Translations under genes and position numbers: made by a program | In this document: positions 177-56,100 of the stretch, in pieces | Layout: each line of letters begins with the position of its first letter | Numbering within the stretch: position 1 is the first letter of the stretch | Notes under the pieces: generated by a model | What the model saw: only the letters and a program-made list of their open reading frames with translations | Told to the model about the DNA's origin: nothing | Database searches by the model: none | Assembly (NCBI RefSeq): GCF_018977255.1 | Contig: NW_024704742.1 | Location: 56,918,001-56,982,000, forward strand | Direction of reading: 5' to 3' | DNA length: 64,000 nucleotides | Source: Callorhinchus milii | Lineage: Eukaryota

Positions 177-3100
177 GTCCGCATTATCCTTTGACAATTT
201 GGGGCTTAGAAGAGTTTGTGGGATTAGGGCTTGTCTGTGGGGACACAAACCTCACTCCCAAAGTGGAACGTTTTGGTCTAATTTGGTTAATGGGGAGTGA
301 GCAGGTCGAACCTTGCTCACCAATAATTTAAAAAAAAGATATCAGCACAAATTGAAAAGAAGTATCCTGTTCAACAATCCCTCCAGATAAATATATTTGG
401 TCCTCCTCTGTTCCAGTGAAAACATCTGTCACACAATTAGCTTTTATTCTTTAATCTTATTTCAGTGAATCTATGCTGTTTCCAATCCTGTACTTTTTTT
501 TAATATATTGAATACCAAAAATGGATGCACTAATTTAGCTGTTACCTAATTAATATCTTGTCTACTTGGTTCCTATATTTTGTTTAATGTTATTTGATAT
601 TATGTGATACTTATGTTAGGCTGACATGATTAGTCTAACTAATTAACACTATTAATCAGTGTTGCTTTCAAAGGATTCTTTTCATGACCAAGTATTTAGT
701 CAAAATATTCTTGTATGTAGAAGGAAAGAAACTAGAGTCAGAATGCTTCATTGCATCTTGATGTTGCTTGCCAATGATGTGATTATGTGTTTAATTATGA
801 TTGAAACAGTTGAATTACATGTTTGTGGACTTCATTAAACAGCAGTTTAATTGATGGATTATAGTTCTATAACTTCATGCAAAAGTATGTCCTGAGATCC
901 TTTCAAGCTCTTGGCACTTAAATTTATTATTGCATTAAGTAGAGATGTGAAGTCTTAAATTGGTGATCCTCTGTGTACAGTTGCTGAAGTTCACACTGTT
1001 TTTGAATTGTTTCCTTTTTTTTGCTGGTTGGTAATTGTAATTGTAAACACATTTTCCAAAAAAATTATTTCAGGCATCCTTCACATCCATTGAAAACCAA
1101 GAATTAATATTTCGACTAAAAGGTGGATTTTATTTGTCAGGTCTTCTCAGAAAATTGGATGGTAAGTAAATTAGTTTCAGATTCAATTACATTTCTAAGT
1201 GTGATTTAGGCATTCTAATAAAAATAATTTGTTTACTGTATTGAATGCTTGAATAATGGTTTGCATGCTGCTTGAGTAGTGGAGCCATATCAAGAGTATA
1301 AACTTTTTTAATTACAGCAGGTTTCTCTTGGGTCGGCATAACGTATGCAGCGTACAATGGGGAAAAAAATTATTTTTACTTACTCTTCTTCAGACGTTGA
1401 GGCGCATTTACTTTGATTTTCGTATGAATGTTTAAAACCTCAAAGTCATTGTTCGGTGTACTAACCATGTCCTGGAGAACAGTCTGACTACATTATGCCA
1501 GACTATATAAGTTAAACGTAAATTGTATTATGAGAAGAAAAAGATTTGGGGCTACAGATTGCAGTGTTGTGTGCATGTACAAAGAGACAGGTGTTCTGAC
1601 TGCTTTGGCTGAGGAGGAATAGCTAGTGATGGGGATGAGGGGAGGAATGAATTCCAGGAGGATCGAAGCCTGGAAGTGGTAAGGGAATAATATGTCTGCT
1701 GGTGAAATTTTCATGTAAGCCTAAGACTTGTCCTACCTGGACAAACTGCAGGAAGCTTTCCAAACAGTGTTTGCAATGACAAGGTTTTAGTTGGTTAAAT
1801 TCCAGCAGCAGCTCAACACACACTGTGCTTTCCAAGCTTTAACTCTCTGCCAATACTTTCCAGAATTAGGTAAGCAGGATGCTTCCCTCTAGGGTGAGAA
1901 TGTGCGTACCATTACAGAAAAATGGGAAATTTCCACACGTGGGTGGCATGTATATGTGAAACTCAATCTGGTTTGAATACGCGTAAGCCTGGTCATGCGT
2001 TTCTGGGTATGTCAGACATCCAACTGACCAAAAAACCTAATATCACCCTAGACTATAAGTCAGACTTTAAATTCATCAATAAAATTTCTTCTGACTCAGA
2101 GATGAGCTGATATTTTGCTGACATTATCTGAAAGTGAATTTCTTTAATTTCTTTAGTGATGCAGGTTTGATAGGGGTGTATTTCTCGGGAAACACAGTAA
2201 TATATAATGCAACTTTAATCTTGCATGTATGTTTCTCATTTGATGTATACATGATAACGTAACTACTGATATTATATAGAGACACTGAGTAATTAGATTG
2301 TGTAGTTAAGCATTATTATTGAGATCCGAATACTTTTAACATGGTTCTTTTTTTTTTGTTGAGACCAGAATCTTCAATTAAGGCAGCCATTTCAGAAGCC
2401 ATAAATGAGGCTGTTTTTAAGGTGAATTCAGAAGCTTTCGTTGTGAATTCTGAAAAGAGTTCACTAGTTGTATGGCCTAAGACTCATATCAGCACACATC
2501 TAGTAGACCTACCAGAGGATGCTGCCTGCAAATCCATTTTAAAATTTGTTACGTAAGTTATTGAACTGAATGTATAAAGTGTTTCATTATGATGCTGTTG
2601 CATATTATGATGGGCTGCAATGGTTGATGACTGACTCCTACATAAAATCAAAGTTTGAGACAAACCAAATTCTCCTTTTACCTCTGTTAGCTGTTCTGAA
2701 TTGCTCATTTTGGACATCGACAGTTTGCTTAATTTATCCCAATTATGATATTTTTGAAAATCACAGTGAATTGATTTCTGCATTAGTTTTTAATTAATGT
2801 TTGAATTGATATATTTTTATATGTTGGTTTTTTTTATCACCTGTGCTTAAAACTTCAGATAATTCTGGGCCATTTAATACTCCTGTTTGCTCACATATTT
2901 TTCGTGTAGCGCAGTACTTTGTATTTAAAGAAGCATCACAGTTCATTGAATAAAACTGGAGTATATTAAGGCATTTGTATTGACACAGATGAAAGGGGTT
3001 TTTATCAGTTGGAAAGTTAATTGGTGATGTATTGCACAATATTTTCATGCATCTGTTTTGTTCCTTGTAATACTTCTTACTCCTGTAAGCGTCTCAGTTT

Positions 3101-6100
3101 TCCAAAACATTTGAGTTTTTAGTTAGAGCAACATTTACCAACACAAAAATATGTACCATAGAGACTGAATTGAATCCCAATTTAGAGATCAAATGACTGC
3201 CAATGCCTTGGGTCGTCCTCCCGAAATGAAAGGTGCTATACAAATGTAATTTTGTATTCTGTTGACCTAGACATATGGTGCAACACACTATTAAATCTGA
3301 AAAGAGTAGTGGTCTTTGCTTTTGTCGCTGCTAAAAGGTTAAATGCCAAACATCCCCTCTATCTCTGCAACCCACTGAGGTCTCACACCTCAGGGATTAC
3401 AAGTTTTTCTATAAATGTGTGAGATTGCTTGTGGTGCATAAATTGAAGAGGCTTATTTTGGCAGTCAGATTCTATTTGTACATAATCTTACGGTAAAACT
3501 ATACCACAGTTTTCAATATTTATTTCAGAATTGAGCAGGATGAGCGTATTAAAAAGATCAATAAAAAGAAAGCAAAAAAGATCATACCAGTGGTAAGCAA
3601 TGTAAATTTGACTTGTTTCAAAGATAATTTGGAGTTTTACAGATTGGTTACCTATGCTATATGTTTCTGAAAATACAAAAGCTGTACTCTTAATCTTTAC
3701 AAACCAGACCTTTCTAATAACAGTAAACAACATTTCTTAGTTGTTATAGGCTTGTTAGTCAAACAATGGCAGTCTAAACTGATCCTCCAGTGCAGTTCCC
3801 GGGGTATGCTGTAACGTTGGAGGTTCAGTCCTTTGGATGAGACATTAAACTGACTTCCCCTTTGCTTGTTTGGCATTGAAGCAACCCAAACTGCATCCTA
3901 AAAGAGCAATGTTCAATTTGTTTTGTGAATTTGGTTGCCTTCTTCTCTCCCTTTCTTTTCTTGGTTCCCAATTAGTCCATTAACATGTGTATCTGCTCAG
4001 ATTCCCCTATCAATCTTCTGAAGACTCCATTATATAATTCCAGTTTTCACCTGATCTGAAAGGTAAAATGTATTGAAAGACATTTTAATACATAAAATTA
4101 ATAGGTATTAATAGGTATTCTCGAGCTATTCTTAAATCTTCTTGTTTCCATAATTAAATAATTTGACAAAAGGCTAATTTATATTTTATTAGTTTGTAAA
4201 TGACTTGACCTTTCAACAACTAATAATCCCAATTACCATTTGTTTCAGAAAGTAATAAACTTCAACATTTTGTTTGAGATGACAAGGCCTGAAACTGTGG
4301 AGAGCATGCATGTTCTCCAAGACAACAAATCACGACTCCACTTCAGTATGATTCTGCCAGTGGATGCATTGATACATGTTAAACCAGATGACACCTGGGG
4401 AAAGTATGATGTTATTTTGTCCTAGACATCAAATGGTTTCTAGATTGAATATATTAATAGTGAAAGAGTAGCATATGGTAGCCTGCAGAGAGGGACTGGG
4501 ACTGTGACAGGCAGCAGTGGGTAGAGAAGGGGGATTTGAGATTAATGACGAAGGGGGTTGGCCAACAGCAGTAACTTGCATTTATATAGTGCCCTTCACA
4601 TAGGATATCTCAGAGCACTTGTAGGATTATATAGGATATAAGATTATAACTGAGAAAAAAACAAATGGCCCAGAAATGTTTTATTTTCAAAATTGTGTTG
4701 TAGCAAATATCTTTATTATTAACAGTAAATTGTGTTTTGACAGAGTGCAAGATCTATTTGTGCAAGCAGTCACCACTCAGCTAGGAGATATGGAGAAGGT
4801 AGTCCAGCAATTCACAAAAGGACAGTCTGTTCCAATACCCCAACCATTCCACTTTTCACTGCGAGGCGAAACTACATTTGCTACAGTTGTGTACCCTGCT
4901 GGAATAAGTGATGGCGATCTGGAGTCGTATCGAAAAGTATGGCTGAAGTTTTGCTTGTGTTTTTATATTTATAGAGTCTATCCACCAATTCTGAAATTTT
5001 TAAAATGCTATGAAATTGGTGTAACCTTTTCTGTCCTTACCATACCTTCTTCAACGTTTCCTCTTTTCCTTACCTTATTCAACTGAAGCTGAAGTTCATA
5101 CCTTAGATATTAAGTCTTGCATCTAACTTTTTAAAATATCCAGAAAATAGTTCCAGGTGCCTGGTCTCTTGGTGCAGTTCATGTATTTGCCAATCTCCTA
5201 AGTTTAGGCAGTTTATTTCTTAATTTTCTTTACATTGCATGATTTGTTGACTTTTTCACATATTGAAGATGTCTGGGCTAATATTACTGGATATGAAATG
5301 TGTCTCAATCTCAGTAGTGAGCACATGCTAATTAAAAAAAGTTCAACCAATGCCATATCCTGATCTTCCATAATATTTTATATTCGTTAAATGTTCTATT
5401 TAATCTCCTCTTCGACCATGCCATCGGCCACCCACCTTCCCCTCCCCTCCCTTCCCCCCGCCCCCCCCAGGCCTAGCTCGGGTCTGAAATGCTGTACTCT
5501 GTCCAGCGCCTTGGGACGTCCTCCCGACATGAAAGGCGCTATACAAATGTAACCTTCTTGCTGTTGTTGTATTTGGCCTTTTTTAAATCTTTATTTTTAT
5601 TTTCCAAATACAATAAGAAAACATCAAACACTGACTACTGTATTTCATCTTTCGATCACATCAACGCATATCTAAACATGATTTATTGGATCCTTCTTGC
5701 TATCTGCACTTTCTGTACATTTACTAGTTTTAATACTCTTAAGTGACTCCCCTTCGAGTTCTCGTTGCTCTCATAATTATCCAATTATGATTTTGTCTGT
5801 TGTCTCTTATTTAGCTCAACAACTGCTTTATTCCCCTTGAACTGATGTTTAATAGTGCAAGAGTTATCAAAAAATGACTGTCCTTAACTTCTACCCTTAA
5901 TACTTCTATCCTATTATTAACCCATCCAATTAACTTACGGTCTTCTGGTACCTAGTTGTAAACTAGTTACACCCCTTGTAGCCCTTACTTAGTTTTAAGC
6001 ATGCACATCATTCAGAAACTTATTCCTTCAATTAAACTAGGGAGTTACAAAAATGTGGACATTTAAGCAAGAGTTATGCTTTATGTGACTTTTTGCTTAC

Positions 6101-9100
6101 AATGTTTGTAGTATAAATTAAACTGTTACATGATGGCTTTGAAACTTAAGGCACTGTCTTGCAGATTTAGATTTTAAAAAAATTATGTGTACAGACATTG
6201 CACCGTGAACTTGATCTGCCAGATGATAGACCCTTCCTTCGACGTGTTATGGCTTATCGTTTTCCTCATGAAACATCAAAGGACGTGTACCTGCCCAAGA
6301 TGCACCAATTTCTCATTCATCCTGCAACAGAGGATGCCAAGGTACATCCCTGAAGTAACTATACCATACCTTTTTTTATTGCCATAGAAACACACATATA
6401 GTTAATTCAAATCTAATAATGTGTAATTACCTGAAAGGCTGGGGATAAGAAACATAAATTCTCTTCGTTTTAAAAAAAATGTCTTCATCCTTTTTACAGG
6501 TTTATTTAGTACAGGGGTCGTACAACTTTTATCACTACCTGCAGGATAACATAGAGGATGCAGATTGGGGCTGTGCCTACCGTTCCTTGCAAACAATTGT
6601 TTCCTGGTACAGAGCACAAGGATATACTACTAAACCAGTCCCAACACATGAAGAGATCCAGGAGGTATCTGTGCATTAATATCTATTTAATAATCAGATT
6701 AATAATAATCTGTAGTAATATCTAAAGCGCTCCGAGACTCTACCCTGCGTGAAGGGCTCTTTCCTCTCCACCCATGCATTATTCGAACCCCTTCAGTCGG
6801 GTTTCCGTGCTGCCCATAGCACAGAAACCGCCCTGGTCAAGGTCACAATGACATCTTGACCATCTGCGACCAGGGCTCCCTCTGCCTCCTCGTCCTCCTC
6901 GACCTATCGGCAGCATTCGATACGGTCGACCACGCTATCCTCCTCCACCGCTTGTCCTCCCACCTCAACCTTCAAGGCCCTGTCCTTGAGTGGTTTAGGT
7001 CGTACCTCTCCCACTGTGTCTTCATTTTGTTTCCACAAACGGCTTTTCCTCCAGCCCCTGCACTGTCTCGTGCGGTGTCCCTCAGGGCTCTGTCCTCGGT
7101 CCCCTCCTCTTCACCCTCTACATGCTCCCCCTTGGTGACATCATCCGCAGACATGGGGTTAACTTCCACATGTATGCGGATGACACCCAACTCTACCTCT
7201 CCTCCACTACCCTCATCTCCACGACCACCGGTGTCCTGACAGCTGCCTGTCCGACATCGAGTCCTGGACGAGAGACAACTTTCTTCAGCTCAACGTGCGC
7301 AAAACTGAGGCCCTCCTGATTGGCTCGTGTCAGCGCCTCCGCACCTCAGGCGCTGACAACATCAGCATCCAAGGCTGCACTCTCCACCTCTCAAAGCCGT
7401 CAGGAACCCCGGTGTTCTGTTCGACCCTGAGCTGTCCTTTCTTCCTCATCCGCGCCACAACTGGCACCGCCTTCCATCACCTCTGAAACATCGGCAGACT
7501 ACGGCACTACCTCACCCCTCACTCTGCTGAAACTCTGGTCCACGCCTTTATCACCTCAAGGCTGAACTATGGGAACTCTCTCCTCGTCGGCCTTCCCGGC
7601 CCTCCCTCCACAAGCTGCAGGTCATTCAGAACTCTGCAGCTCGTGTACTGTCCCGCACCAGGCTTCGCGACCACATCACTCCCACCCTCCCTCCCCTCCA
7701 CTGGCTCCCCATCCCCCAGAAGATCGAATTCAAGATCCTCATCCTCACCTACAAGGCCATTCACGGCCTTGCTCCTTCCTACCTCTCCGACCTACTATCC
7801 CCCTACCTACCTGCCCGTACCCTCCGTTCCTCTGGCTCCGGTCTGCTCCACATCCCCCGCCCCAACCGCTCTACCATCGGTGGCCGGGCCTTCAGCCTCT
7901 CAGCCCCAGGCTCTGGAACTCCATCCCCCAGTGCCTTCGCCGCTTCCTCCCTTTCCTCCTTCAAGGCCGGTCTCAAGACCTTTCTCTATGACCGTGCCTT
8001 CAGCTCCACTCTCGACTCTCTACCCCCTCCTCGCTCTCTCCCTTCCCTCACCCTGACCATTTCCCCTCTGCTCGGGTCCTGACCCAACTGTCCAGCGCCT
8101 TGGGACGTCCTCCCGACGTGAAAGGCACTGTATAAATGGAATCTTGTTGTTGTTGATGTTGAGGCAGAGGGAGCCCTAGTTGCAGATGGCCAAAATGTAA
8201 TTTGTCACTTTCACCAAAGCTGTTTCAGTCGGTACAGAAACCCGGTTGGAAGGGGTTCGTGAAGGGAGTGGCAGGAGCATGAAGGAATGAGGAATGAATG
8301 AAGCTGAGAAGCAAAGATTCGTTCCAGAACCTTGGAAAGGAAAGGGAGGTTGGAGATGGGGCAGTAATTTGAAAGCAGGGATGGGTCCAGGGAAGGTTTT
8401 TTAAAGATGGGAAGATGAAAGACATTTATAAAGGGGTGGGAATGGTGCCAGTGGACAGGGAGAGGTTTATGATGTCTGTGAGTAGAAGAGCAAGGAGGTG
8501 GAGCTGGGTGGTAAGGAAAGGGGTAGGGATGGGGTCGAGAGAGCAGGTGGTCGGTTTTATGTGGGTTATAGTGGTGGTGAGAGGAGGGGGAAAGAGGTTT
8601 GAAGGTGTGGATGGCGTGAAGGTGTGATGGGGATGGGGTAGTAGACGGATCCCCTCGACTTTGATTTGAGGAAGTCCAGCATCACCTCACAGTTGACATT
8701 GGAGGAGAGAATGGGTGATGCGTGCGTGGGTGGGCGGAGGAGCCATTTAGTGAAGGAGAAGAGGAACCTGGGGTTGTTCTTGGCCTCCAAGATTGACTTG
8801 GAGTAGAAGAACGGTTTAGCGGAGCCAAGAGTGGAGTGGTAAGTTTTGATAAAGTCCAACCAGATCTGCCGATGGACCATTAAATCTGGGTTGCTGGTGT
8901 ACCAGGATGACTTCCGTGAGTAGGTGACAGTTTGGGAAATGAGGGTGGCAAGGGCATTGAAAGTGGTACAGAGGGATTTGTGGAGGAGAGTGACCAAGGA
9001 GGATGGCTCATTGCAGGAGGAAGCCCAGAGAGGGAGGAGTTTAGATCACTCCCAAAGCAGCGGAGTGGGGGGGAGATTTTTTTTCAGGGGCGGGAAGAGA

Positions 9101-12100
9101 TGAAGGTGGGTTTGGTGGCGGTGGGGAGAGGGATTGAGGAGTTAAGGGAGATGAAGTAAGATGAATATAACAAGAATGAACCTGCTTTCACGGAAGAATT
9201 TCTGTTAGAAAATTATTTGAAAAGAAACACATAACCGGACAGTGGTATATTTTCCTGAAAGTTGTTTGGCAACATTAGGTAAAATTAGTTCCCACAAAAT
9301 CATTAATTTTTCTGTGTCAGTTTTACATAACCCTCTGTATACTTGCACTGTGAGTCAAAAAAAATTGTTATATTCTAAAGTTTCCTTTTTAGAGAGGAAA
9401 TAAGATGTTTTAAAAATATCTAACTGAAGTCAAACATTGCTCCAAACGCCATTGAATACTGTGAGGGTTGTGCAGTGCAATGCATTCTATTTATTTCTTT
9501 AAGCTATTCAAGACGCTGTCCCACGTGCTATATAAATACAAGTGGTGATTGTTGTTCTATGTTTATTGTCAGATAAATACAACAACAACAACAACTTGGA
9601 TTTATATAGCACCCTCCACGCCGGACGGCGTCTCAGAGCGCTTTACAGTTTAGGATCCCGGGGCTGAGCCAGGGGGAGGGGTGGGAAGGTGACCAAAGGC
9701 GCGGTCGAAAAGAAAGGTCTTCAGAAGAGATGTGCACAATGCAATACAAAAAATGTGCACAAATGTGCAACACAAAAAATGATTGCCTTGGAACCTTGCT
9801 GTAGCAGAAATCACTGCTTCAAAAGAGGAGGAAGGAAAATTATGAGGATGTTGTATTGAAAATTGCAATTGTTCATTTTTATATACTATTTTTGTTTTGT
9901 GTCTTCAGGCTTTGGTGGCCGCTGGAGATAAAACTTCAGATATCATAGGATCAAGTGAATGGATTGGGTGTTTTGAGATCCAGCAAGTACTAGATTCCCT
10001 GGGATTTACAGCTAAAATTATAAACGTCCGGTAAGATAAATGAAGCAAAATGGTCATTGTAAATTCTTCTTAAAATTTTAACATTTCTGTTATTGTATTC
10101 ACTATATTCTAAAAACTAAATCAAATATGTTGTACCGTACTGCGTAGTTTGAAAGACAGTCATATATTGAACACAGGAAAAATAATAATAATCCTTGCAT
10201 TTGATATAGCACCTTATCAAGTCTTTGAGACATCTCAAAGCACTTCACAGAATATACAGTAAAGTGACTGTATATTTTGTGGCCGAAACAAAATGCATTA
10301 ATTGTAAATTAGACTAGAAACAATTAAGGGCAGTGAATACACTTGCTCAACTTTCCCTCATCTATGGAATATTAGTTTTGTTTCCCCCCTGGTTGAGATG
10401 CAATTGGCTGCAGTAATTGTAAATATGCAATTTCTACACTTGACAGGAATTATCTGTGAATTATTTTGAATATTTGATGATAGTAGCATTGCAGGGAAAC
10501 TCCATTATAGCACGGCTTTACTTATAGTACTGGTGTAGTGAGGACCTGTGCTAACTAGAAGTGCGTTACACCCGACTCCAGTGCTGACCGACTCCAGATT
10601 GTCACTGATGCTGTTTCCTGTGCCCTCCAAACAAAGAAAGCACTGCATGTCAAACATTTTTTCATGGTTTGTTATAATGCAGGTGCTGAGACATTGTCCC
10701 TAGACTGTTGTAACAGTTTGCCTTGCATAACTACTTATTATTTCTTCAGCTGGTTCCCATACAGTACAAGAGTTAACTGACTATGGGAATATTGAAATAG
10801 AAACATCTGTTGTTTTTGGAAGAACTGAAAGAATCGCAATCACTTGAAAGTGAAACTCAAAATCCAGGCCATATCAGACTTCAGGAATTATGTAGTTTAT
10901 TTTGATATAGATTATTTCAAAATCATATTTGAATCTGACAATCTTTTTGTAACCTAAAACTGAATGTTATTTTAGTGAAACTAGTAAGAACATTTCCAGT
11001 ATCCCCATATATTTATCAGGAAATTACACTAATTTATTTGTGTTTCAAATCTCTTATATGAATCTGTAATACTACTACGTTTCAATTTAGCTATTACATT
11101 TGTATTATAGATTCAAAGTAATATTTTAGTAGTTTTCTACATCCTTCAATGAAAGGAAATCATTTCACTTTTCCAGTACAGGTGCTGAGTTTCCTTCAAT
11201 AGGAAGAGAACTTGCAAATCATTTCACAGTTGAAGGAAGTCCAATTACGGTTGGTAAGTTTGTGATCAGTGTTGAACATCACCATTTGATCTTTTTGAGA
11301 CAACCGCAGTCAAAGTTACAAATGACCTTCTGTCTATCTGACCAGGGCCTTCTCTGTCTCCTCATCCTTCTCGTTCTCTCTGCCGCTTTCGACACTGTCG
11401 ACCACTCTATTCTTCTCCACCGCCTCTCCTCAGATCAACCTTCATAGTTCTGTCCTTGCCTGGTTTCTCTCTTGGCTTTCCCACTGTCTCAACTTTGTAT
11501 CCACTAACTACTTCTCTCCACTGTTACATCCGACATTCCTCAGGGCTCTGGAATGTATTGGAAAGTAAAGCGGAGTGAGTACGAAGAAATGGGGAATATT
11601 TTAATTTCAAGTCAGATGTGCATTCATTCGCAACTCTTCTTTTTCCGTGTGTGATTGTTTGAAATACAGCTGGTGATCGTCTGGCAAACACCATCTTGGG
11701 AGTGATTTGGAATGAAAATACAGGTGATCTAAAATTCCTTGTGATGGACCCACACTACATGGGAGATGATGAGTGGAATGCTGCCATTGAAAGGGTATGT
11801 GGAGATACAGCAGCAATGACTAAAACTCCAATGGACAATCCTGCCACAAACATTTTTGGTAGTGATTCTGTCAATTAATATAAATAGCAGATTTGTTTCT
11901 GTTAAAAATCTTTTTGTCTGTCTAAAATAACCAATTGTTTTGGTCAGCCAGGTGGCTAATACACACGGAAGCCCATTATCTGCTTAAGAGTATCCAAGAG
12001 TTCTGTGTGCTATACTTGTAGTCTAGAATGGGATGTGCACTCTCACAGGTGCTTACCTAATTTCAGAGAGCATTAAGTGCAGATTGGCAAGAGCTGAGGC

Positions 12101-12472
12101 TTGATAGACATACCCTAGAGTTTGGGTTAGGGTTTTTAACCCAACAAAAATCGCATAAATTGCCATCGAAAGCACTGTCTGACAATGTTGCCCCTGCTTG
12201 TCCAGCTAGGACCACCTCACCTTTTGGGGGTTTGGCTGGCAGGGTTAACAGGAGCTGATTATTATCTATGGGTCTTCTGTATCCAAAATTAAATTGAGCA
12301 CTGATTCCTCATTAGTTGTTGGGCTGTTGATGCATAGAGTTAAGACTTAAGACTGTTGTATTAACTTTAACTCTCTTGCATGTTTCAGGGTATTGACTGG
12401 AAAGGAATAGATTTCTGGAATCCAATGGAATCTTTCAACCTCTGCTTGCCACAAAGACCGTCAGGTGTTTAG
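168..12472 (+). CDS. UFSP2: UFM1-specific peptidase 2 (peptidase C78), 12 coding exons, ~468-470 aa, divergent
   Basis: Exons 168-170 (or -176), 1074-1161, 2369-2552, 3529-3592, 4249-4403, 4744-4936, 6195-6341, 6500-6664, 9909-10030, 11177-11253, 11670-11794, 12389-12472, all GT-AG with continuous phase. Motifs [43 protein letters not shown]; adjacent to ANKRD37 as in other vertebrates. Confidence 0.93.
1074..1161 (+). CDS. UFSP2: UFSP2 exon 2 ([29 protein letters not shown])
   Basis: tttcag acceptor, gtaagt donor; resembles the ILFRIRGG N-terminal motif. Confidence 0.85.
2369..2552 (+). CDS. UFSP2: UFSP2 exon 3
   Basis: polypyrimidine..ccag / gtaagt; inside ORF 2341..2556; phase 1 to 2. 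Confidence 0.85.
3529..3592 (+). CDS. UFSP2: UFSP2 exon 4 ([21 protein letters not shown])
   Basis: tttcag / gtaagc; phases match flanking exons. Confidence 0.8.
4249..4403 (+). CDS. UFSP2: UFSP2 exon 5
   Basis: tttcag / gtatga; [20 protein letters not shown]. Confidence 0.88.
4744..4936 (+). CDS. UFSP2: UFSP2 exon 6
   Basis: gacag / gtatgg; [28 protein letters not shown]. Confidence 0.9.
5400..5570 (+). mobile_element. L2-type LINE 3' end fragment
   Basis: cagcgccttgggacgtcctcccgac..tgaaaggcgctatacaaatg..(TTG)n, same 3' end as the 6760-8155 element. Confidence 0.75.
6195..6341 (+). CDS. UFSP2: UFSP2 exon 7
   Basis: tacag / gtacat; [21 protein letters not shown]. Confidence 0.88.
6500..6664 (+). 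CDS. UFSP2: UFSP2 exon 8 (catalytic Cys TGT 6572-6574, oxyanion Tyr)
   Basis: tttacag / gtatct; [34 protein letters not shown]. Confidence 0.95.
6760..8155 (+). mobile_element. 5'-truncated L2/CR1-superfamily LINE (degenerate reverse transcriptase plus 3' tail)
   Basis: [26 protein letters not shown], [11 protein letters not shown] motifs with frameshifts; ends in (TTG)n. Confidence 0.92.
8160..9160 (-). mobile_element. older L2-type LINE ORF2 fragment (region preceding and entering RT)
   Basis: minus-strand NNPRFLFS and [24 protein letters not shown] peptides, degenerate. Confidence 0.8.
9578..9728 (-). mobile_element. L2-type LINE 3' end
   Basis: (CAA)n ttggatttatatagc..ggacggcgtctcagagcgc, shared with 19475, 32390 and 55041. 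Confidence 0.75.
9909..10030 (+). CDS. UFSP2: UFSP2 exon 9
   Basis: cttcag / gtaaga; [23 protein letters not shown]. Confidence 0.92.
11177..11253 (+). CDS. UFSP2: UFSP2 exon 10
   Basis: ttccag / gtaagt; [17 protein letters not shown]. Confidence 0.92.
11300..11552 (+). mobile_element. L2 RT fragment
   Basis: [23 protein letters not shown]. Confidence 0.75.
11670..11794 (+). CDS. UFSP2: UFSP2 exon 11 (DPH box 11747-11755)
   Basis: tacag / gtatgt; [31 protein letters not shown]. Confidence 0.93.
12389..12472 (+). CDS. UFSP2: UFSP2 exon 12 with stop
   Basis: tttcag; [27 protein letters not shown]. Confidence 0.92.
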   Translation, partial: GIDWKGIDFWNPMESFNLCLPQRPSGV

Positions 12473-14068: not shown

Positions 14069-17000
14069 CTAGGCTAGTACATATTGCAGAAAACAAAAAA
14101 AAATGATTGCATGACAAAATGTCTTCATTGAACCTTCCATGCACAAGAAAACAGTTTGAGTGTATCCTGCTGTTCATCGTTTCTTTAACATTTTGCCATT
14201 TAAGTATTCTGTTAAAATCTGTCATTGTTTCCCAATGCAGCCACTGATTCTGCTAATTCTTCACAATGATCTCACCTCCTGCAGTGACAGTAAATGTTCC
14301 GTTCTACCACCTTTACAAAATTCTTTATTCGATTGTTGAATACCTATTAAATGGAAAAACATGAAGGTTAACAAGCCTTAATAAGTAAGTGAAGTGAGGA
14401 AGTTTTATATCATCGTAATTCTTGGCATTTGATATAGCGCCTTATCACATCATCGAAAAGTACCATTGGCAGGCGGGCCTTCAGCCACTGCCCCCACCCT
14501 CTGGAACTCCATCCTGCAGTCGCTCTGCCTCACCCCCTTCCTTGCCTCCTTCCAAGACCTGTCTGAAGACCCTCTTCGACTGTGCCTTCGGTCACCCTCC
14601 CCCCCCCCCCCGCCCTCTCCGATCCCAACCCCCAGCTCGGGTCTGAAGCACTGATTGTCCAGCGCCTTGGGATGTCCTCCCAACGTGAAAGACGATATAC
14701 AAATGTAATTTGGTCATTGTCTCAAAAAGCGCTTCATAGGATATATTGTAAAGTGTAATATCCTTGTATTTTGCGTTTGAAACGTGGCAGCCAGTTTGCA
14801 GACAACATTTCTAAAAAAAAATTAATCTGGATTATAGGTACAAACGGTTTTGTTGGATCGATGGAATCCATTTATATGAACATACCTCGCTGTTGCACAA
14901 GTTCATTTTTAACATGATCCTCCATTGGACCCACTTGCCAACTTCCCAGCAAATAATAATAAATCTTGCAATTGATATAGCACCTTGCCCTTGAGATGAG
15001 TGCGTGCATGATATACAGAATTACATCAGCAAACATGGGGTGACTTTTAACATGGATGCTGCTGACACCCAAATTCACCCTACTGCTTCTATCTTTGATT
15101 CCTTGACTCACATCAAGTCCTGGATTAAAAGCCACCTAAAAATCTACCTCTAGCTGTGCCTACGGTCACTTCCAAACCTCCCCACCCACCCTGCTTCATA
15201 ACTGGTACCATCTGTAAAGTCAATGGAGATGTTACTGTATATAAACACAAGCTGCTGTTGCTATTATGCGTTTTAGGATTTTATGTACAATCAAATATCA
15301 GAATAAACTAGTCCAAGAAAAGTTTTGTCACTGGTAGATACTATTTACAGTTTGCTTTTTCTAATTCTACACTGTACTCAAAAATTGAAAATAATGTCAT
15401 TGTTATAATTAGTGGAATCAAAAGCAATTTTATCCACCTATTGACTTAAAATTCTTACCAGAGAAATGAACAGAAGTAAGTTAGCTTTCTTACCATCGAT
15501 TTTGGCCTTCTTCTTGTCAGCTTCGAATACGCCACACATGCGTTTATAGCCAGCTGGCCTGTGTACAAGCCCTCCCCTGTCCCTGCTGTTTGCTGGCAAC
15601 TGTCCATCGTGAAGTTGGGGCTGTGTGCTTCGTGTCGTTCGTATTGTTGCCAAGAAATTTACACAATCAGCATGTCCGTGGGATAATGCAAGATCTTCTG
15701 CAGTCTGTCCAGCACAATTGCAGAGTCTAAGCAGAAATTAGATCTCATTTAATTACTACAAAAGAGAAACATTACTTTTAAGGAAAACTAATAAAAACTC
15801 TCTTCATTGTGGCAGTGAACTATCATGTTCAGAAATGAGCTCTGCAAAATTAAGATTTCTTCCTCAACATGTGAAGCTCCTAAAATCAACTTTTAAATAG
15901 TCGTTATTATCATCAATATTTAACTAGGATATGCTCAAAATCTCCATAGAGAAAGTTGTAGGAATACTTCACTCGAGAGTTATCAAGTTAGTAATCAGAA
16001 ATATAACTATTTGTTTAGTTTCTCACACCATACCCTCCTATTAACAACTTACATGGTGAGGAGTAAAAATTAGTTTTTAGGCTTAAAAGTGGCAAGGTAA
16101 GTACTGAATAGTGAAGCAAACAAGCCCTGAAAGTTACTTATCAGTCATGTAATAAGCCTATAGTAATACATAATTTTAATAAAAAGATATAGCAATGGCT
16201 TGAATAGCCTCCTGCTCTGAAAATTTCTGTGTAACCCACAATTCTTACCACTAAAAGTAAAATGTTAACTTTTTAAAAACTCCCTTTTAAAATCTATTCT
16301 TTGACAAATGAGGAAATCCCCTTGATCATCCGATTGTGTTGGTTTCTACTGTTGGATCAATTGTTTCTCTCCACCCACCCACTCATTTAAAGTTGAGAAA
16401 TTACAAGAGACACAACAACATTTTGTTAAATTCAGCCCAAACATACAAAGATTATGTGCCAAACTATTATTTTAAATGTAAATATAATCAGTAATATACT
16501 TTTTTAGCATTTAACCATATGCAACCAATTTAGCAGATATAGTAACTATATAGTAAGTATAGCAAGTAGTCAGCTGCTGAAACTAATGTTGAAGTTGCAA
16601 ACATCTGAAAATGAATGCAAATCACTTATGGTGCCACAGATGGATCGTGTTACTCAGTGAGTTATTTCTTAGAAATATATAGCATTGCAATCCACTGGAT
16701 CTATATCTAGTCACTGCCTATGTGGGTATTTGACCAGAGGTATTGCGATGTGATTTTGAAAATTACTGCGAAGACATGCAATCATGCTGCAATACAATGT
16801 TTTGAAGTACAGGGCAACATCATTAATAACAATGTATTCTGGGTCAGAATATCTCCAACACTGTTTTATGAACAAAGAACAAAAATGGCTGGCTTCAAGT
16901 TTGTCGGGTTGCCACTGATAGCACTTCCTGGATATTCGCAAGCGATATCACTTGCTGCACAGTGTCATTACAGCAAGTGAAATGACCTCCCTTTCCCGCA

Positions 17001-20000
17001 CCATGTGTGATACTACAACAACAACATTACATTTGTAAAGCGCCTTTCATGTCAGGAGCACGTCCCAAGGCGCTCAACAGTCAGGGACCAGGACCTGAGC
17101 GTGGGGGGGTGCAGGGTTGGGATGAGGGAGGGCAGAGGGGGTGTGAGGGCGGCTGATTGCACGGTCAAAAAGGAGGGTTTGGAGTCGTGCCTTGAAGGAG
17201 GCAAGAGAGGGAGCAAAGCAAAGGGATTGTGGAATGGAGTTCCAGAGGGTGGGGGCAGCGAGGCTGAAAGCTCGGCTGCTGATGGTAGTAGTGCAGGTCG
17301 GGCGGGAGACATGGAGCAGCCTGGAGCCTGCTGAACAGAGGGAGCGGACAAGTTGATAGGGGGTCAGCAGGTCAGAGATGTAGGAGGGGGCAAGGTCGTG
17401 GAGGGCCTTGAAAGTGAGGACGATGATTTTGAATTCCATCGTCTGGGGGATGGGGAGTCAGGGAGCTGGGCGAAGGGTGGGGATGATGGGGTCATGGAAC
17501 CTGGTGCAGGAGTGGACATGAGCTGCAGAGTTCTGGATGATTTGCAGCTTGTGGAGGAAAGAGTTGGGGAGGCCGACAAGGAGGGAGTTTCCGTAGTCGA
17601 GCCTTGAGGTGACGAATGCATGTATGAGGGTTATGGCGGCCTGAGGGATGAGGCAGTGGCGGAGTCGGGCAATGTTGCAGAGGTGGGGGAAGGCAGAGCG
17701 GATCATGGCACAGATATGAGGGAGAAAGCAAACACAGGAAGTTTTGTTAACAGTGACCTGACAACCCAGAAGTTGGCCCTTTATATACGTGGGGAGCTGG
17801 CTAGTTAGCACGGGAATTTGGGTGTAACACATTTATCAGCCGGTTAGGGCAGGACCATCAGATACCAGAATGTGAGAGTGCTTTATACTACGGGATGGGA
17901 GTTGGGTGGGGTGGGGGGGAGAAGAAAGTATACAACAGAATTTTATTGTCGTCATTGACACACCTAATTACTTACTCAATTCTTGCAGCTGAAGCAACAA
18001 GTAAGCTGATACACTGCAAGCTTCCGGTTTTGGCAGCTTTGTGAATGGCAGCCTCTCCCAAATCATCCTGGAAAAGAGTGACAATTCTAACGTAAAATGT
18101 TGCTCTTGTTAAACTGTGCAAAGTTGTTTGACATTGGAGTATATGGGTAGATGGGCAATACTATGGGTAGAGAGATGCTGCATTAAATTTATTTCATATT
18201 CACAAAAATACCAATGTAAGTAGTGTAATATTGACAAACATTATCTCTACTTCATAGGAAAATATAACGTGATTTAATTCTTGTGGATAAATGTTAATAA
18301 TTCAGGTTGAGGTTATTAAACATTCTATCCTTAAGGTGAATTAGCTGAATCACAAATTAAACAAGCTAATTTGCATTTCAGATACACTTGTTTTTAAAAT
18401 GTTGCCATTTTTTCAATTCAAATTCTGATTCTTTAAGCACGGAATGACTGAAATACAACTTAACAGCATTTCATATAGCAATCAAGGCAACTACAGTATA
18501 TCCAACACATTTCCATTTTAACCAACATTTGGGTGGCTTAGTTGTTTGAAGCCTGATTTGAGATCAGAAACCCACTCACCCTTCAACAACTTGGGATTTA
18601 TACCGTGCCTCTCACATAATATATTAATTTGCTTGACAAATGTTATGGTGGACATAAAGTATGCAAATATGATATTTAAAGATGATGGTAAAAGTCATGG
18701 TTACCAAGATATGTTTCTATGTTCTTGAAGGCAGCGAGTGAGACAAGCAAGCATAGTAGTTTTGGAAGAATATTGCTGAGAACAGAAACACAGTATTTGA
18801 AGGCATGGCTTTCAAGAGTAGAGTGAAGGGAATGGGGAGAGAACAACAGACCAGCCGAATGAGCTGGCTGGAATATACGGCTGCACAAAATTAAATTGGT
18901 TGGTGGTGTGAGACAATGGACAAATATTAGGATCGAAAGGAGGTTAGTGAAATGGATACCGTCTCCAAAAAAAAAATCTTCTTGAAAGAATGGAAAGCAG
19001 TATATGCCCGGAAATCAACTGATTCTGACTCACATCTGGAAAAACAATCAGGGCATTACTGATCCTGCGCAGTCGAAACATGACCTCCACTCCAAAGAAT
19101 CAAATCAACATTGGCTAAATTAGCTGTACGGTTAGCATTTTAACTGATTGTTGGTGATTTATGTCAGCCAGCTAATATAATTCTTGCACTTGCTACAGGT
19201 CGTTATCCCACCTACAAAATATTTCAAAAGTTTCACAGAATTTACTGTAAAGTTTAGTAACTCTATAGTTTGTAGGTGATAAAAGCAGCAATTTGACCAC
19301 CGTAATTAACAGCCTATACATAAATGATTGATATTTATTGGGGGGTTTTGGCCAGGACAACTAGCAGAAACTCCTTTCTCTTTTTGTAAAACGTTATGGG
19401 ATCTTTAACCTCCATGTAAACATCCCCCATCAGTTCTGCTGACCCAATGTGTTTTTTATACAGTACTTAATGAGAACAACAACTTGGATTTATATAGCGC
19501 CCCACACGCCGGACGGCGTCTCAGAGCGCTTCACAGTAACGGATCCCGGGGCCGAGCCATGGGGAGGGGGAGGAAGGTGACCAAAGGCGCGGTCGAAAAG
19601 GTCTTCAGCAGAGACCTGAAAATGGGAAGGGAGGGAGCGAGGCGAAGGGAGTGAGGAAGGGAGTACCAGAGCCTCGGGACATAGTGGCTGAAAGCACAGC
19701 CGCCAAGGGTGGAGCGGAGGACTCGGGGGACGAGGAGGAAGCCAGACCCAGAGGAACGAAGGCAATGGGTACTGTTTTGAGGAGAGAGATCAGAGAGGTA
19801 GGGGGGTGCAGAGGAGTGGAGGGATTTGAAGACAAGGGTGAGGATCTTGAAGTCGATCCTCTCTGGGACAGGCAGCCAGTGCAGTCTGGCAAGGACTGGG
19901 GTGATCGGGGAACAGAGTTTGGTGCGGGTGAGAATGCGGGCGGCAGAGTTTTGAATAATTGGATTTTGTGGATGGTAGTGGAGGGGAGGCTATTAGTATT

Positions 20001-21435
20001 GATAGGAGGAGAAGCCTATCGGTATTGATTATTTACAGGATTTCTTTCTTTCTTTTACTTTCCTGCTAAATAATAATTCTTGCATAGTGAAAGGATTTCT
20101 TAACTCTTCAGGGGATTTACTGTAAAGTTGTAGTAACTGTATTTTGTAGACAAATGCGATACCCCAATTTTGTGCACAGCAATGTCACAGCCAGGAAGTG
20201 AATGAACAATTTTATCTGAAGGATTGTTGACCAGGACAGCAGGAAGAACTTCCTTTATTTCTGAATTAGTGCCAATAGGATCTTTAACATTCACCTGCAC
20301 GGGCAGACAGGAACCCAGTTTAAAGACTCATCCGTAGGGCAGCACCTCTGACAATGCAGCATCCCCAGCACTGCTTCGGAGTGCCAGCCAACACTATGAA
20401 TTCAAAAGTCTGGATGTGAGGCATGGGGCTCAAACCCACAACTTTCTGACTCAAAGTTGAGAGTATATATAAACCAAATCACACTAAAGAAAAATCATTT
20501 ATAAAGTAATTTGATGTGATTTATTTATTTTGGGGGGAACGATCCTACCTGTTGGTTGACGTCCGTTCCAGCGTGTAGAAACCAAAGCAAGCAATAGGCT
20601 TGACCGCCAAATGCTGCTAGATGTGCTGGAGTCTGGCCTAAACAGCCCGGAGAGTTCACTGCAGTACCTGCCTGCATTAGTTCATTCAAGCACTCGACCT
20701 ACAAGACAAAAATAATAATCCTTGCAGTTGCAATCAATATAGCGCTTTATCATGTAAAAGCACATTGCAGAATATATTGTGAAGTGCATTGATTGTGTTT
20801 TTTCTGAGCATAACGAGAGTGCCAATTCCGCATTCGTAAAATCACGCTGAGGCTACAACTGTACATCAATCCTACCAACAACAACAACAACAACTTGCAT
20901 TTGTATGGCATCTTTCACGCCGGACAGCGCCTCGGGGGCACTTACCAACACCGTCGAATCAAAGCAACTATTTGCTGATCTGAAATGGGGATTTGTACGA
21001 TGCTCTTGATGTAAATTGGGCAAGAAAGCCCGCAATCTTAGCAAAGCTACATTTCCCATCCAAAACAGATACTGTAATTAAAAACGCAAAGACAAATTCA
21101 GAACCCGCTCTGGATAAATTCTACGAGTTGCAGATTTTGCCAGGCGTTCAAAAAAAAAAAAGAAATTAGCCTTATTTCGAAAATCTCTGGTTTGCTTAAA
21201 AATAGATCTGCTGAGAGTCTTTTCAGCACATTGTGGCTGTTGTGGACCATTGTGCCTTCAGGTCATTGTCACATTCCCGACAATAACAACTGTGATTTAT
21301 TGTGTCATTGCGTTTGTAAATCCCACCCGTGTTTTGCTCGCCGCACACAAGCAGAAAGCCAGTCAGTCAGTCAGTCAGGAATGTTGTGCTACGCGAATGC
21401 TTATTTACCTCGGGGTTATAATCCAACAGAATCAT
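14069..21435 (-). CDS. ANKRD37: ankyrin repeat domain protein 37, ~168 aa; terminal exon uncertain
   Basis: Exons 21435-21409 (MILLDYNPE), 20698-20549, 18067-17976, 15726-15494 and a probable terminal exon starting at 14073 (tag/CC TAG). Ankyrin motifs GQTPAHLAAFGG, GEAAIHKAAKTGSLQC, GQTAEDLA; N-terminus resembles mammalian MLLLDCNPE; syntenic position. Confidence 0.9.
14462..14712 (+). mobile_element. L2 3' end fragment nested in a SINE remnant
   Basis: APTLWNS motif and 3' tail cagcgccttgggatgtcc. Confidence 0.75.
15494..15726 (-). CDS. ANKRD37: ANKRD37 exon 4
   Basis: cttag / gtaaga; LCNCAGQTAEDLALSHGHADCVNFLATI..KRMCGVFEADKKKAKID (basic, bipartite NLS-like end). Confidence 0.9.
17012..17725 (-). 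mobile_element. L2 3' fragment
   Basis: IHAFVTSRLDYGNSLL, FKIIVLTFKALH, APTLWNSIP; (CAA)n tail at 17014. Confidence 0.88.
17976..18067 (-). CDS. ANKRD37: ANKRD37 exon 3
   Basis: ttccag / gtaagt; DDLGEAAIHKAAKTGSLQCISLLVASAARI. Confidence 0.92.
19475..19990 (-). mobile_element. L2 3' fragment
   Basis: C-terminal ORF2 similarity to the 7650-8000 segment, plus shared tail. Confidence 0.82.
20105..20470 (-). mobile_element. Deu-domain SINE (SacSINE1/AmnSINE1-like), degenerate
   Basis: reverse-complement similarity to 40005-40392 (ggatgagtctttaaactgggttcctgtctgcc..aaagatcc). Confidence 0.65.
20549..20698 (-). CDS. ANKRD37: ANKRD37 exon 2
   Basis: ttgtag / gtagga; VECLNELMQAGTAVN..GQTPAHLAAFGGQAYCLLWFLHAGTDVNQQ. 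Confidence 0.92.
21409..21435 (-). CDS. ANKRD37: ANKRD37 exon 1 coding part (MILLDYNPE)
   Basis: ATG at 21435, 27 nt, gtaaat donor. Confidence 0.88.
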
Positions 21436-26885: not shown

Positions 26886-37190
<10,305 letters not shown>

Positions 37191-53100: not shown

Positions 53101-56100
53101 CCGTGTCCCAAATACAGAGTCTGCTAATGGTTGAGGGGGAAGAGGCCCTGTACAACAATTGGCCATAAAGAGAAGGCTGCTGGTTCAAATCCCAGTCTTT
53201 GCTATATTAGCTGTTCTCTGACCTCAACAACAACAACAAATTACATTTGTATAGCGCCTTTCACATCAAGACGTCCCAAGGCACTGGACAGTCAGGGATC
53301 TGCACTAACTATGCCCATAAAATACACACGGTCACACTACTTTACAATATATCCTGTGAAGCATTTTGAGATGAGATGTCTTGACAATGTGATAAGACCC
53401 TATGTCAAATTGTAATAAAGAGAGGAATGTGTGTGTGAGGCACTTATCTGCAACTTAGAAAAACAGAAAGATAGTACCAGATATTAGACAAAGCTATCAA
53501 GAACTAAGACATAATCCATTGTGGACCTAACAATAGAAGAAGTAATGTATAACGAGATAAGGGCAGAACCTTACAAAATGGGAAAAATACAAAAATACAA
53601 ATACAAAATTTCTGATGATCCCACACATCAGGTCAAGCTAGTACCATCCATCCTTGGGTGATTGAAGACTACGGTCACGGGTGTAAAGAGTGCAAAATCA
53701 GCACTCCAGATTGGGGATAAAGACCCAGACTTGAGACAAAGGACAGCAATGACTGTACAGAAGGAAGGCCTTTCTCTAACAGAAGCAATCCCAGGCTAGA
53801 GTCACGGGTAATATGGTTTTGGTTGCTGCGTTTGCTGAAGCTGTTTGCTAATATGATAATATAATATCAATATTAATGCAGGGAATGTAACTTTGTGTGC
53901 TTGAATAAATCTTACGAAAGGTTGATGATCTTGTGTGTTTAAATCCTTATTGAGTAAACCGGGACAGTCCTGAATTCCTACAAAATGGAATGATTATTTT
54001 ATTATGAAAATAATGTAAAGGTTAATTCTGATTTGAGAAAGGCAGATTGCTCTCTAGGGCAGACTAGTAACCACCTTTATGGGATAATTGATGATAGAAT
54101 CATTTGGCCACCAATTTGACCCACCAGATAATTTTATTTTGCATTTCTGGGGTTAAACAGGCCATTGCCACAGGCCATTGCTGCAGTCATTTAAAAACAG
54201 TAAAAGCCTATTATTGCAGCCTGTCTCTGGGTAGTGAAATCAGGTGGAACATGCACATAACATTCTCCATATGACAAAAGTTACGTCCACGCAGCACAGA
54301 TGTTTTAAACACTGCGCCAAAGCACCAAAGCACCTTCAAATAAAAAGGGTTCTTCAAAGCAATTTCAATAATAATGTAACTAAAGGTTAAACAACAAAGC
54401 TCAGCTAGTAGCGAATATACCCAAACCCTTAAATTATACACATCACAATCATAACATTGTACCATCACAGCAAAATAGAGAGCAAGACGACAATGAGCTA
54501 AATGTGTGGCTTTATCACTAGTTCCTGCCCTAGCCCAACCTTTATAACATTATATGCTGGCAGCATACTTCTTATTGATCATTATGTCAGTCACACTGAA
54601 ATATATAATGCGTAATTCCCAGACTGAATCATTAGCACTGAGCTCTGCTGCTTTCACTGAACTATATTAAATGTGCTTTGTGCTGGAGGAAAATAAATAA
54701 AAATATTGATGTGGCCAAGTTCCCCAGTGAAATAGGTTTGTTTTTATCAAAACAGCACTGCCTACATATAAAAAGAGCATCAGCAAACTGGTTTATTGTT
54801 CAGGGGGGATGAGAGAGAGAGAGAGAGAGAGAGAGGAAGAGGCTGAGAGGGAGGGGGAGAGGGAGGTAAGCCACCTCATAGCAACATTACTGTAGCAACA
54901 CACTGAGATACTCAGACATCATAAGATCACTGTAGCTCAGTTGTTAAGAGCCCTGTAGCTCAGTGGTTAGAGCACTCGCCTTGCAAGGAGGAGACCTGGG
55001 CTTGATTCCCGGCAGGGAGAAACCTTAGGCAAGTTTCCTTACAACAACAACAACTTGGATTTATATAGCTCCCTTCACGACGGACGGCGTCTCAGAGCGC
55101 TTCACAATAACGGATCCCAGGGCCGAGCCAGGGGAAGGGGGAAGAAGGTGACCAAAGGCGTGGTCAAAAAGAAAGGTCTTTAGGTCCACATGTCTATGTT
55201 TACCTAGTAAGTAGGAACACTGCTATGCACAATTGGCTTGCGCGTTTCACCCACAAAAAATACAGTCAATTCACTTTACAGTATATTCTGTGAAGCACTT
55301 TGAGACGTCTCAAAGACGTGATAAGGCATTATATCAATTGCAAGGAATATTATTATTATTTCTATTATCACAGGATTGGTTCTGATGAAAAAAGGACTTA
55401 TCCTTCTGGAATACATACCCTACCATCGCAGCGCAAAGCTGTTTCATAAATCAGTCCACTGTCCTGGCCTCAACCACCCTTCCTGGTAACTTGTTCAGTT
55501 TGTTAATTACCAGGTGGATAAAGAAAAACTTTCTGGTGGCTGTGCTGAAATTGCCCTTCGTAATCCTGAACTCTCCTGTTCTGCTGCCTTGGGATAACTG
55601 AAAATATTCTTCTGGATGTACTTTCTCAATTCCATTTACAATCTTATATAACTCTGTAAGATCCAATCTGAGCCATCCCTTTTCAAGGCTGAAGAGCCCT
55701 AACCTGTCTAATCAACGTTCATAGCTAATCCTCTACTGGGGTTCATCCTCATTGTTCTACTCTGCACTATTTCTATCGCCTCATGTGATTCATGTGTGAC
55801 CACCTTGTGCATTTGCAAACAATACATTTTTCATGAAGGCAGTATCTCATTAAAGACTTCATTCGTTCAGTGCTGCTGGGGCTGCCTGGTTGCTTGCTTA
55901 ATATAATATGATCTGAGTATTAGTATACTTCACAACTGTTTGCAATAGTGATTCCATCTCTCCTGGAACCAAAGACACAGAAAACAAAAGGCCCTCAAAA
56001 AACTTCTAGTCATTTTTCATTGCAGGTTAACAGGCTGCCCTCACTGGCCAGCCTATGGCCTGATCCCGACATCACAGAAACTGCAACTTATCCAATGCAA

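Follow-up and report, generated by a model that had tools for sequence, protein, structure and literature searches.

The UFSP2 gene of Callorhinchus milii and a remodelled catalytic groove shared by cartilaginous fishes

A 64,000-nucleotide stretch of the Callorhinchus milii (elephant shark) genome (contig NW_024704742.1, positions 56,918,001 to 56,982,000, hereafter the window) carries a gene for UFSP2, a C78-family protease of the ubiquitin-like modifier UFM1, in which several familiar motifs are altered. A preliminary description of part of this DNA had seen here an intact catalytic domain, possibly with a new specificity. Is this gene a stray paralogue, a protease with another target, or a protease whose groove was rebuilt while UFM1 remained its substrate? 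We observed that the remodelling of the groove is clade-wide in chondrichthyans and not private to C. milii. The gene is annotated and its family is known; the remodelled groove is a real, lineage-defining UFSP2 variant. As judged from the sequences, the enzyme is probably (at a rough probability of 0.55) still a UFM1-directed protease, with kinetics or a target preference predicted to be unlike those of the mammalian enzyme.

Gene structure and retained catalytic residues

The UFSP2 reading frame in the window was intact and free of stops, and consisted of 11 exons (1074-12472, + strand) separated by 10 GT-AG introns. The ATG belongs to a short exon that precedes the window by 1.8 kb (G000:C1:56916193). 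The spliced frame matched P0001, the protein that NCBI names UFSP2 of Callorhinchus milii, at every position of residues 2-468. The exons are as follows.

1074..1161, + strand: coding exon 2, residues 2-30
2369..2552, + strand: coding exon 3, N-terminal domain (PF20908)
3529..3592, + strand: coding exon 4
4249..4403, + strand: coding exon 5
4744..4936, + strand: coding exon 6
6195..6341, + strand: coding exon 7, with the linker that leads into the catalytic domain and PKMH (6294-6305)
6500..6664, + strand: coding exon 8, oxyanion Tyr291 (6536-6538) and catalytic Cys303 (6572-6574)
9909..10030, + strand: coding exon 9, Asp340 (9927-9929), groove Trp351 (9960-9962), Cys354 and Glu356
11177..11253, + strand: coding exon 10, ending within the codon of Ala400, in the remodelled loop
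11670..11794, + strand: coding exon 11, loop G401-D402-R403-L404 (11672-11683), catalytic Asp426-Pro-His428 (11747-11755) and the chondrichthyan-fixed Trp435
12389..12472, + strand: last coding exon, GIDWK at 12389-12403 (Trp of GWxGW deleted), SFNL, and the stop at 12470-12472

The preliminary description covered the last six of these exons. Its in-frame GT-AG splicing without stops was confirmed, the catalytic Cys, the DPH and the oxyanion Tyr were located where it had placed them, and all seven altered motifs that it listed were found where expected. Two studies supplied four runs that are presumed to be RNA, though none is recorded as such. In three of these runs the contigs skipped all 10 introns and in the remaining one they skipped nine, and no differing letter was listed within any exon. 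As the contigs are spliced and match the exons, the UFSP2 sequence is real and spliced, and an assembly error as the source of the odd motifs was ruled out.

The protein showed the domain order of UFSP2, with PF20908 (UfSP2_N, E-value 4e-84) followed by PF07910 (Peptidase_C78, E-value 1e-53). UFSP1 has the catalytic domain only; the presence of a full UfSP2_N domain and the multi-exon UFSP2 architecture set the C. milii gene apart from it. The triad and the oxyanion Tyr were all present (C303, D426, H428 and Y291). The AlphaFold model had a mean pLDDT (predicted local distance difference test) of 78 and a TM (template modelling) score of 0.97 to a canonical UFSP2 model, with 3OQC and 5XDA as the best PDB matches, and the fold is thus predicted to be intact.

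For comparison, we aligned 12 chondrichthyan main copies and two duplicates with 114 putative bony-vertebrate sequences (100 named and 14 unnamed; one of the latter, P0072, probably does not come from a vertebrate) and 30 named non-vertebrate sequences. The homologue search listed the best 120 of 1096 matches, and the alignment omits one partial shark sequence and other unnamed or fragmentary matches. Tyr291, Cys303, Trp351, Glu356, Asp426 and His428 were identical in 12/12 chondrichthyan main copies and in 144/144 other UFSP2s, and residue 340 was acidic (Asp/Glu) in all of them. The Cys, Asp, His, Tyr and Trp were invariant in the main copies of all 18 species, so these main copies are not pseudoproteases in the sense of having lost a catalytic residue.

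Groove changes and evolutionary rate in cartilaginous fishes

Motifs were scored on the 100 named bony, the 30 non-vertebrate and 11 elasmobranch sequences. The canonical groove (the GGGVL loop and GWxGW) was seen in 97-99/100 bony vertebrates and 27-29/30 non-vertebrates, as against 0/12 chondrichthyans. GGGVLA was kept in 97/100 bony, 27/30 non-vertebrate and 0/11 elasmobranch sequences, and WxGWK in 99/100, 29/30 and 0/11; both were lost in every chondrichthyan compared. The C. milii loop is AGDR, that of sharks is GGEP, and rays have GSET, GSAS, GSAT or ASET. Once cluster members were added, the remodelled loop was found in 18/18 species (the elephant shark and 17 sharks and rays), and no canonical chondrichthyan copy was seen among the best 120 of the 1096 matches.

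The listed motifs had been described as generally strongly conserved. This is true of GGGVLA and WxGWK, which are deeply conserved, but not of DKP (53/100 bony, 9/30 non-vertebrate) or of RNPH, which is a motif of bony vertebrates only (98/100 and 0/30). The changes at DKP and RNPH carry little weight. Two other changes occurred in C. milii alone: the Gly before WGC (99/100 bony, 26/30 non-vertebrate and 11/11 elasmobranch), where a Gly-to-Asp change at residue 300 in exon 8 gives ADWGC, and WIGS (100/100, 13/30 and 11/11), which becomes WIGC. The proline of DPH was present in 0/11 elasmobranchs, as against 130/130 other sequences, and C. milii has it as well.

We also took the 82 catalytic-domain columns that are conserved in non-vertebrates, defined on these alone. 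Chondrichthyans departed at 10-16 of them, and named bony vertebrates at a median of 2 (the maximum being 12 in one gapped gene model, and otherwise 6). Four of the 82 were changed in 12/12 chondrichthyans: Gly402, Val403, Trp442 (deleted) and Gly444. A one-residue deletion near residue 363 (exon 9) was likewise common to 12/12.

The chondrichthyan catalytic domain has evolved about 3-5 times faster than the bony-vertebrate one, and the N-terminal domain much less so. Root-to-tip distances for the catalytic domain were 1.09 vs 0.34 with FastTree and 1.07 vs 0.23 with IQ-TREE (chondrichthyan vs bony). Relative-rate tests on this domain gave p<0.01 in 63/63 pairs with either of two outgroups, while those on the N-terminal domain were significant in 0/63 and 19/63 pairs, depending on the outgroup (the pairs are non-independent in both sets). 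Given these 19 pairs, some N-terminal acceleration is possible. We relied on the catalytic-domain ratio alone, since the N-terminal trees were saturated and their ratios inconsistent (1.3 and 2.2). The earlier view of an unusually diverged catalytic domain is therefore borne out by both the rate tests and the trees.

The exons gave a similar picture. C. milii matched tetrapods at 30-47% in the N-terminal exons (teleosts 32-50%) and at 43-62% in the catalytic-side exons (teleosts 64-83%), and in 5/6 of the latter a crinoid was nearer to tetrapods than C. milii was. Shark-ray identity was 64% in both domains, and tetrapod-teleost identity was 80% in the catalytic and 43% in the N-terminal domain. 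GC-driven divergence was ruled out by the low G+C content at third codon positions (GC3) of C. milii UFSP2, 0.37. The proteins of C. milii are reported to be the slowest evolving among vertebrates (PMC3964593; this and the other articles are cited from the excerpts available). A pathway-wide acceleration was not seen in shark UFC1 (faster in 0/5 comparisons), and a single exon each of UFL1 and DDRGK1 aligned well to human.

A search of the genome with PF07910 yielded 8 candidates and 7 matches, of which 3 were exons at the UFSP2 locus and 4 fell at ZUP1. When the catalytic domain of a canonical fish UFSP2 was used instead, the assembly gave 4 matches, every one at the UFSP2 locus. Profiles and TBLASTN, applied to the remainder of the window and to its flanks (100 kb on the upstream side, 10 kb on the downstream side), revealed no second UFSP-like copy. 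The only other C78 locus detected was ZUP1/ZUFSP, a multi-exon gene with ZUP1 motifs (G000:C3:37146103-37150120, - strand). In trees, C. milii UFSP2 clustered with shark and ray UFSP2, as the sister group of bony-vertebrate UFSP2. CFAP96 lies head to head upstream of the gene, and three further genes lie downstream.

15441..20698, - strand: exons of an ankyrin-repeat gene (weak Ank matches)
35132..36100, + strand: exons of a Sel1-repeat gene
56091..59681, - strand: exons of a PX-domain gene (weak PX match, below the cut-off)

From synteny we take these three to be ANKRD37-like, LRP2BP-like and SNX25-like, and the order of neighbours agrees with that in human. The window gene, detected as a single copy at a syntenic site, is the UFSP2 orthologue and not a paralogue. 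The earlier suggestion of a duplicate with a canonical copy elsewhere was thus ruled out, as the searches gave this single, syntenic locus and ZUP1 only.

Could the odd motifs nevertheless be ordinary or artefactual, stemming from an error in the sequence, from a stray paralogue, or from the divergence to be expected over a 450-million-year split? DKP and RNPH, 2/7 of the listed motifs, are not deeply conserved, and with the best 120 of 1096 matches listed a canonical copy in some shark is conceivable. However, the letter-for-letter match of the run contigs, the single syntenic locus, the nearer crinoid, the acceleration in 63/63 tests with two outgroups, the low GC3 and the reported slowness of C. 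milii proteins (PMC3964593) all argue against this explanation, which is largely refuted and very improbable. The preliminary description would have called the divergence ordinary if it were common among chondrichthyan or fish orthologues on a normal branch. Every chondrichthyan does share the key changes, but the sequences of bony fishes are canonical and the branch length is abnormal; the feature is therefore clade-wide rather than ordinary. We infer that the remodelling goes back to the ancestor which all living cartilaginous fishes share. A groove that is nearly invariant from algae and plants to mammals has been rebuilt in one vertebrate class.

UFM1, its partners and the reading of the groove

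Lineage-specific co-evolution with an altered UFM1 had also been proposed. This was ruled out, as the UFM1 tail PRDRVG is unchanged in both C. milii and Chiloscyllium. C. milii UFM1 (G000:C4:73.24-73.26 Mb) is a spliced 85-residue protein ending in PRDRVG-SH, with 18/20 residues of its last exon matching the PDB UFM1 sequence, and Chiloscyllium UFM1 ends in PRDRVG-SL. The two-residue pro-tail needs a protease.

UFL1, DDRGK1, ODR4 and CDK5RAP3 were all present in the C. milii assembly. The RPL26 lysines at the K132 and K134 positions (PMC9638016) were retained, as counted back from the protein end on the assumption that RPL26 has 145 residues. A broken RPL26-like copy with four stops was also seen (G000:C4:30681762-30682052, - strand). 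The only UFC1 found was an intronless, GC-rich frame of 268 codons (L041:5099-5905; G000:C37:633099-633905). Across the domain its identity to other UFC1s was about 60%, and Gln stood where the lysine K122 is normally auto-UFMylated. It was partly covered by contigs in 2/4 runs and had no close relative among the 120 matches listed; shark UFC1 is canonical. The diverged C. milii UFC1 looks like a local oddity, and the assembly may lack a normal copy, or a retrocopy may have taken its place.

UFSP1 was not found in the assembly with PF07910 or the canonical fish catalytic domain. SRRT, which we take to be the neighbour of UFSP1 in human, lies on a 46-kb GC-rich contig (G000:C676; L059-L065), of which 40 kb were scanned with no C78 match. 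ACHE was not found in the assembly, the sole AChE_tetra match being a different gene of the esterase family. Since the SRRT contig is short and GC-rich and ACHE was not found, UFSP1 may merely be missing from the assembly. The gene with the AChE_tetra match is cholinesterase-like (G000:C11:17863992-17868685, - strand; L058, L066-L067). Its catalytic exon is long and its tetramerisation exon short and diverged, and it is not clearly ACHE or BCHE.

How might a rebuilt groove still serve UFM1? The N-terminal domain would still dock on ODR4 at the endoplasmic reticulum (ER), and Asp340 and Glu356 would go on binding both arginines in the tail of UFM1. The loop 400-404 (G-D/E/A-x, formerly G-G-V) would accommodate Val82, with the nearby Trp435 and the deletions at 363 and 442 compensating for the loop change, much as UFSP1 copes with its own different loop. 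In favour of this reading are the retained catalytic and groove residues, the intact fold, 79 catalytic-domain columns conserved in both clades, a pathway that is in place (UFM1 with its pro-tail, UFL1, DDRGK1, CDK5RAP3, ODR4 and the RPL26 lysines), and the lack of any other UFSP among the matches of the two assembly searches.

Known C78 enzymes bear on this proposal. Vertebrate UFSP2 (mouse, 3OQC) is like the C. milii enzyme in domain order, length, fold, Cys/Asp/His, Tyr, groove Trp and genomic neighbours; in C. milii, however, the GGGVL loop is replaced and the Trp of GWxGW deleted. UFSP1 (mouse, 2Z84) has WIGC and an acidic third loop position (VGGD), as C. milii UFSP2 does, but it has no N-terminal domain, its loop is longer, and it retains the first two glycines and GWxGW. 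The C. elegans enzyme UfSP/ODR-8 (5EJJ, 5XDA) is a UFSP2 with the non-canonical loop GGNM that still binds UFM1 (in the solved complex 5XDA); it retains both glycines and GWxxW and has far fewer groove changes than C. milii. Because of the VGGD and WIGC of UFSP1 and the GGNM of the worm, position 402 tolerates a residue other than Gly, and position 354 a Cys, in UFM1 proteases. The canonical groove is typical of the UFSP2 family and not defining for it, as the loops of UFSP1 and the worm enzyme vary.

Several points weigh against a UFM1-directed enzyme. Ala400 (C. milii) and Ser401 (rays) were seen in 0/144 other UFSP2s and in neither UFSP1 nor the worm enzyme, and GWxGW is missing its first Trp, which even UFSP1 retains; at the level of sequence, Ala400, Ser401 and the Trp442 deletion are without precedent among those compared. 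In the catalytic domain, 34 columns that bony vertebrates hold fixed vary among chondrichthyans, as against 9 that were fixed but different (Trp435 and two deletions among them). The change in this domain thus appears to be mostly relaxation, with few fixed novelties. As the UFSP1 region seems poorly assembled, the argument that UFSP2 is the only candidate protease is weak. We take the GGGVL loop to be the regulatory (R) loop of the review literature. The R loop is reported to contact the UFM1 tail, and a UFSP2 carrying the R loop of UFSP1 to be inactive unless a second loop is swapped too (PMC10952357). The acidic pair would equally suit a ubiquitin tail (PMC5824887).

The last point leads to ZUP1, which is a precedent for a substrate switch within the C78 family (PMC5824887, PMC5896202). 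ZUP1 shares the C78 fold and the WGC-Y and WIG-xE motifs, and differs in its own catalytic His/Asp and its ubiquitin-binding domains. In ZUP1, two acidic residues are reported to bind the tail arginines, and a Trp with Gln489 and Gly490 to form a tunnel that excludes UFM1 Val82 (PMC5824887, PMC5896202, PMC8776766). Chondrichthyan UFSP2 was set against ZUP1 by motif alignment, in which a hidden Markov model placed the Trp and Glu, and Asp340 and the loop were aligned by eye. In this alignment both acidic residues and the Trp were kept, and exactly the tunnel positions were changed.

The enzyme could then be an active protease for another ubiquitin-like tail (e.g. a Gly-Gly modifier) or for another set of conjugates, with UFSP1 handling UFM1. 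The loop positions 402 and 403, changed in 12/12, align with human ZUP1 Gln489 and Gly490 (as inferred from the flanking motifs), whose tunnel is reported to admit only Gly and to clash with Val82 (PMC5824887, PMC5896202). The catalytic residues are retained while UFM1 is unchanged, the change falls mainly in the catalytic domain, and nine columns are fixed but different. However, the new loop is not fixed, and its variability (AGDR, GGEP, GSET, GSAS, GSAT, ASET) fits a relaxed binding site better than a newly specialised one. No ubiquitin-binding domain has been gained (as judged with Pfam) and no zinc fingers were found; Leu404 stands at the position of the ZUP1-type catalytic His (QxQGH), DPH is kept, and ZUP1 itself is present. 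In addition, RPL26 de-UFMylation is reported to be UFSP2-specific in human cells (PMC9638016), and the E3 and the RPL26 lysines are retained. We consider such a switch quite unlikely.

A different possibility is a weakened UFSP2 kept mainly as an ODR4-bound scaffold, UFSP1 having taken over most UFM1 cleavage, the groove having drifted, and protease-independent functions at the ER having remained. The catalytic domain now diverges at the N-terminal pace (the 64% shark-ray identity in both domains), ODR4 is present, and the worm orthologue is reported to have catalysis- and UFM1-independent roles with ODR-4 (PMC3945108).

Elasmobranch duplicates bear on this possibility as well. A second, Cys-less UFSP2 copy was found in Heptranchias, Pristiophorus, Mobula birostris, Hemitrygon and Hypanus (P0113, P0186, P0230, P0233 and the 5' half of P0231), in each case with an open frame and, wherever the region was present, also without the catalytic His. 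The two aligned duplicates lacked both Cys and His, and each lacked some other conserved residues. In Hypanus, dead and live copies were fused in one gene model, which suggests a tandem pair with a pseudoenzyme. The Cys-less copies grouped together in the full-length tree (support 0.99) and not in the N-terminal tree, and because of this disagreement a single origin is not established. No such duplicate was found near C. milii UFSP2. Since these copies persist in five elasmobranchs, a non-catalytic form of UFSP2 can be retained. They are, however, the only copies to have lost catalytic residues; they have the look of released catalytic selection and the main copy, with its Cys, Asp, His, Tyr and Trp invariant in 18 species, does not, which supports a retained protease. 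UFSP1, which the scaffold would require, was not found in the assembly (its expected region being apparently poorly assembled). We regard a scaffold of this kind as unlikely.

Taking loss and change of target together, it is a tentative idea that UFSP2 of the chondrichthyan ancestor changed its target, becoming a protease for another ubiquitin-like tail or a much weaker de-UFMylase. If so, a whole vertebrate class would run UFMylation of ER ribosomes with a rewired off-switch, and sharks and rays would additionally own a dedicated UFSP2 pseudoenzyme. For the UFM1-directed protease that we favour, a rebuilt groove with an unchanged UFM1 offers natural variants that probe the role of the regulatory loop in specificity and bear on how much de-UFMylation an animal needs. 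The Cys-less shark and ray paralogue, which databases label only as 'UFSP2-like', is a handle on a non-catalytic, ODR4-linked role. Full-text searches, made largely outside subscription papers, returned no report of clade-wide UFSP2 remodelling or of Cys-less duplicates, and the supplements of PMC9168615 held no shark names. Point changes in the human UFSP2 catalytic domain are reported to cause skeletal dysplasias (PMC8105169, PMC10952357). Catalytic UFSP2 mutations lead to epiphyseal dysplasia in humans; a tie between the UFSP2 change and the cartilaginous skeleton is conceivable but purely speculative.

Minor observations at the locus

The largest UFSP2 intron contains degenerate pieces resembling long interspersed elements (LINEs) at 6730-8130 and 8200-9150 of the window, which are abundant in the run contigs, and reverse transcriptase fragments resembling them were seen at 31627-31956. 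The starts of UFSP2 and CFAP96 lie head to head, about 2.5 kb apart across a GC-rich stretch (L009:5560-8195), and this stretch is likely to be a shared promoter.

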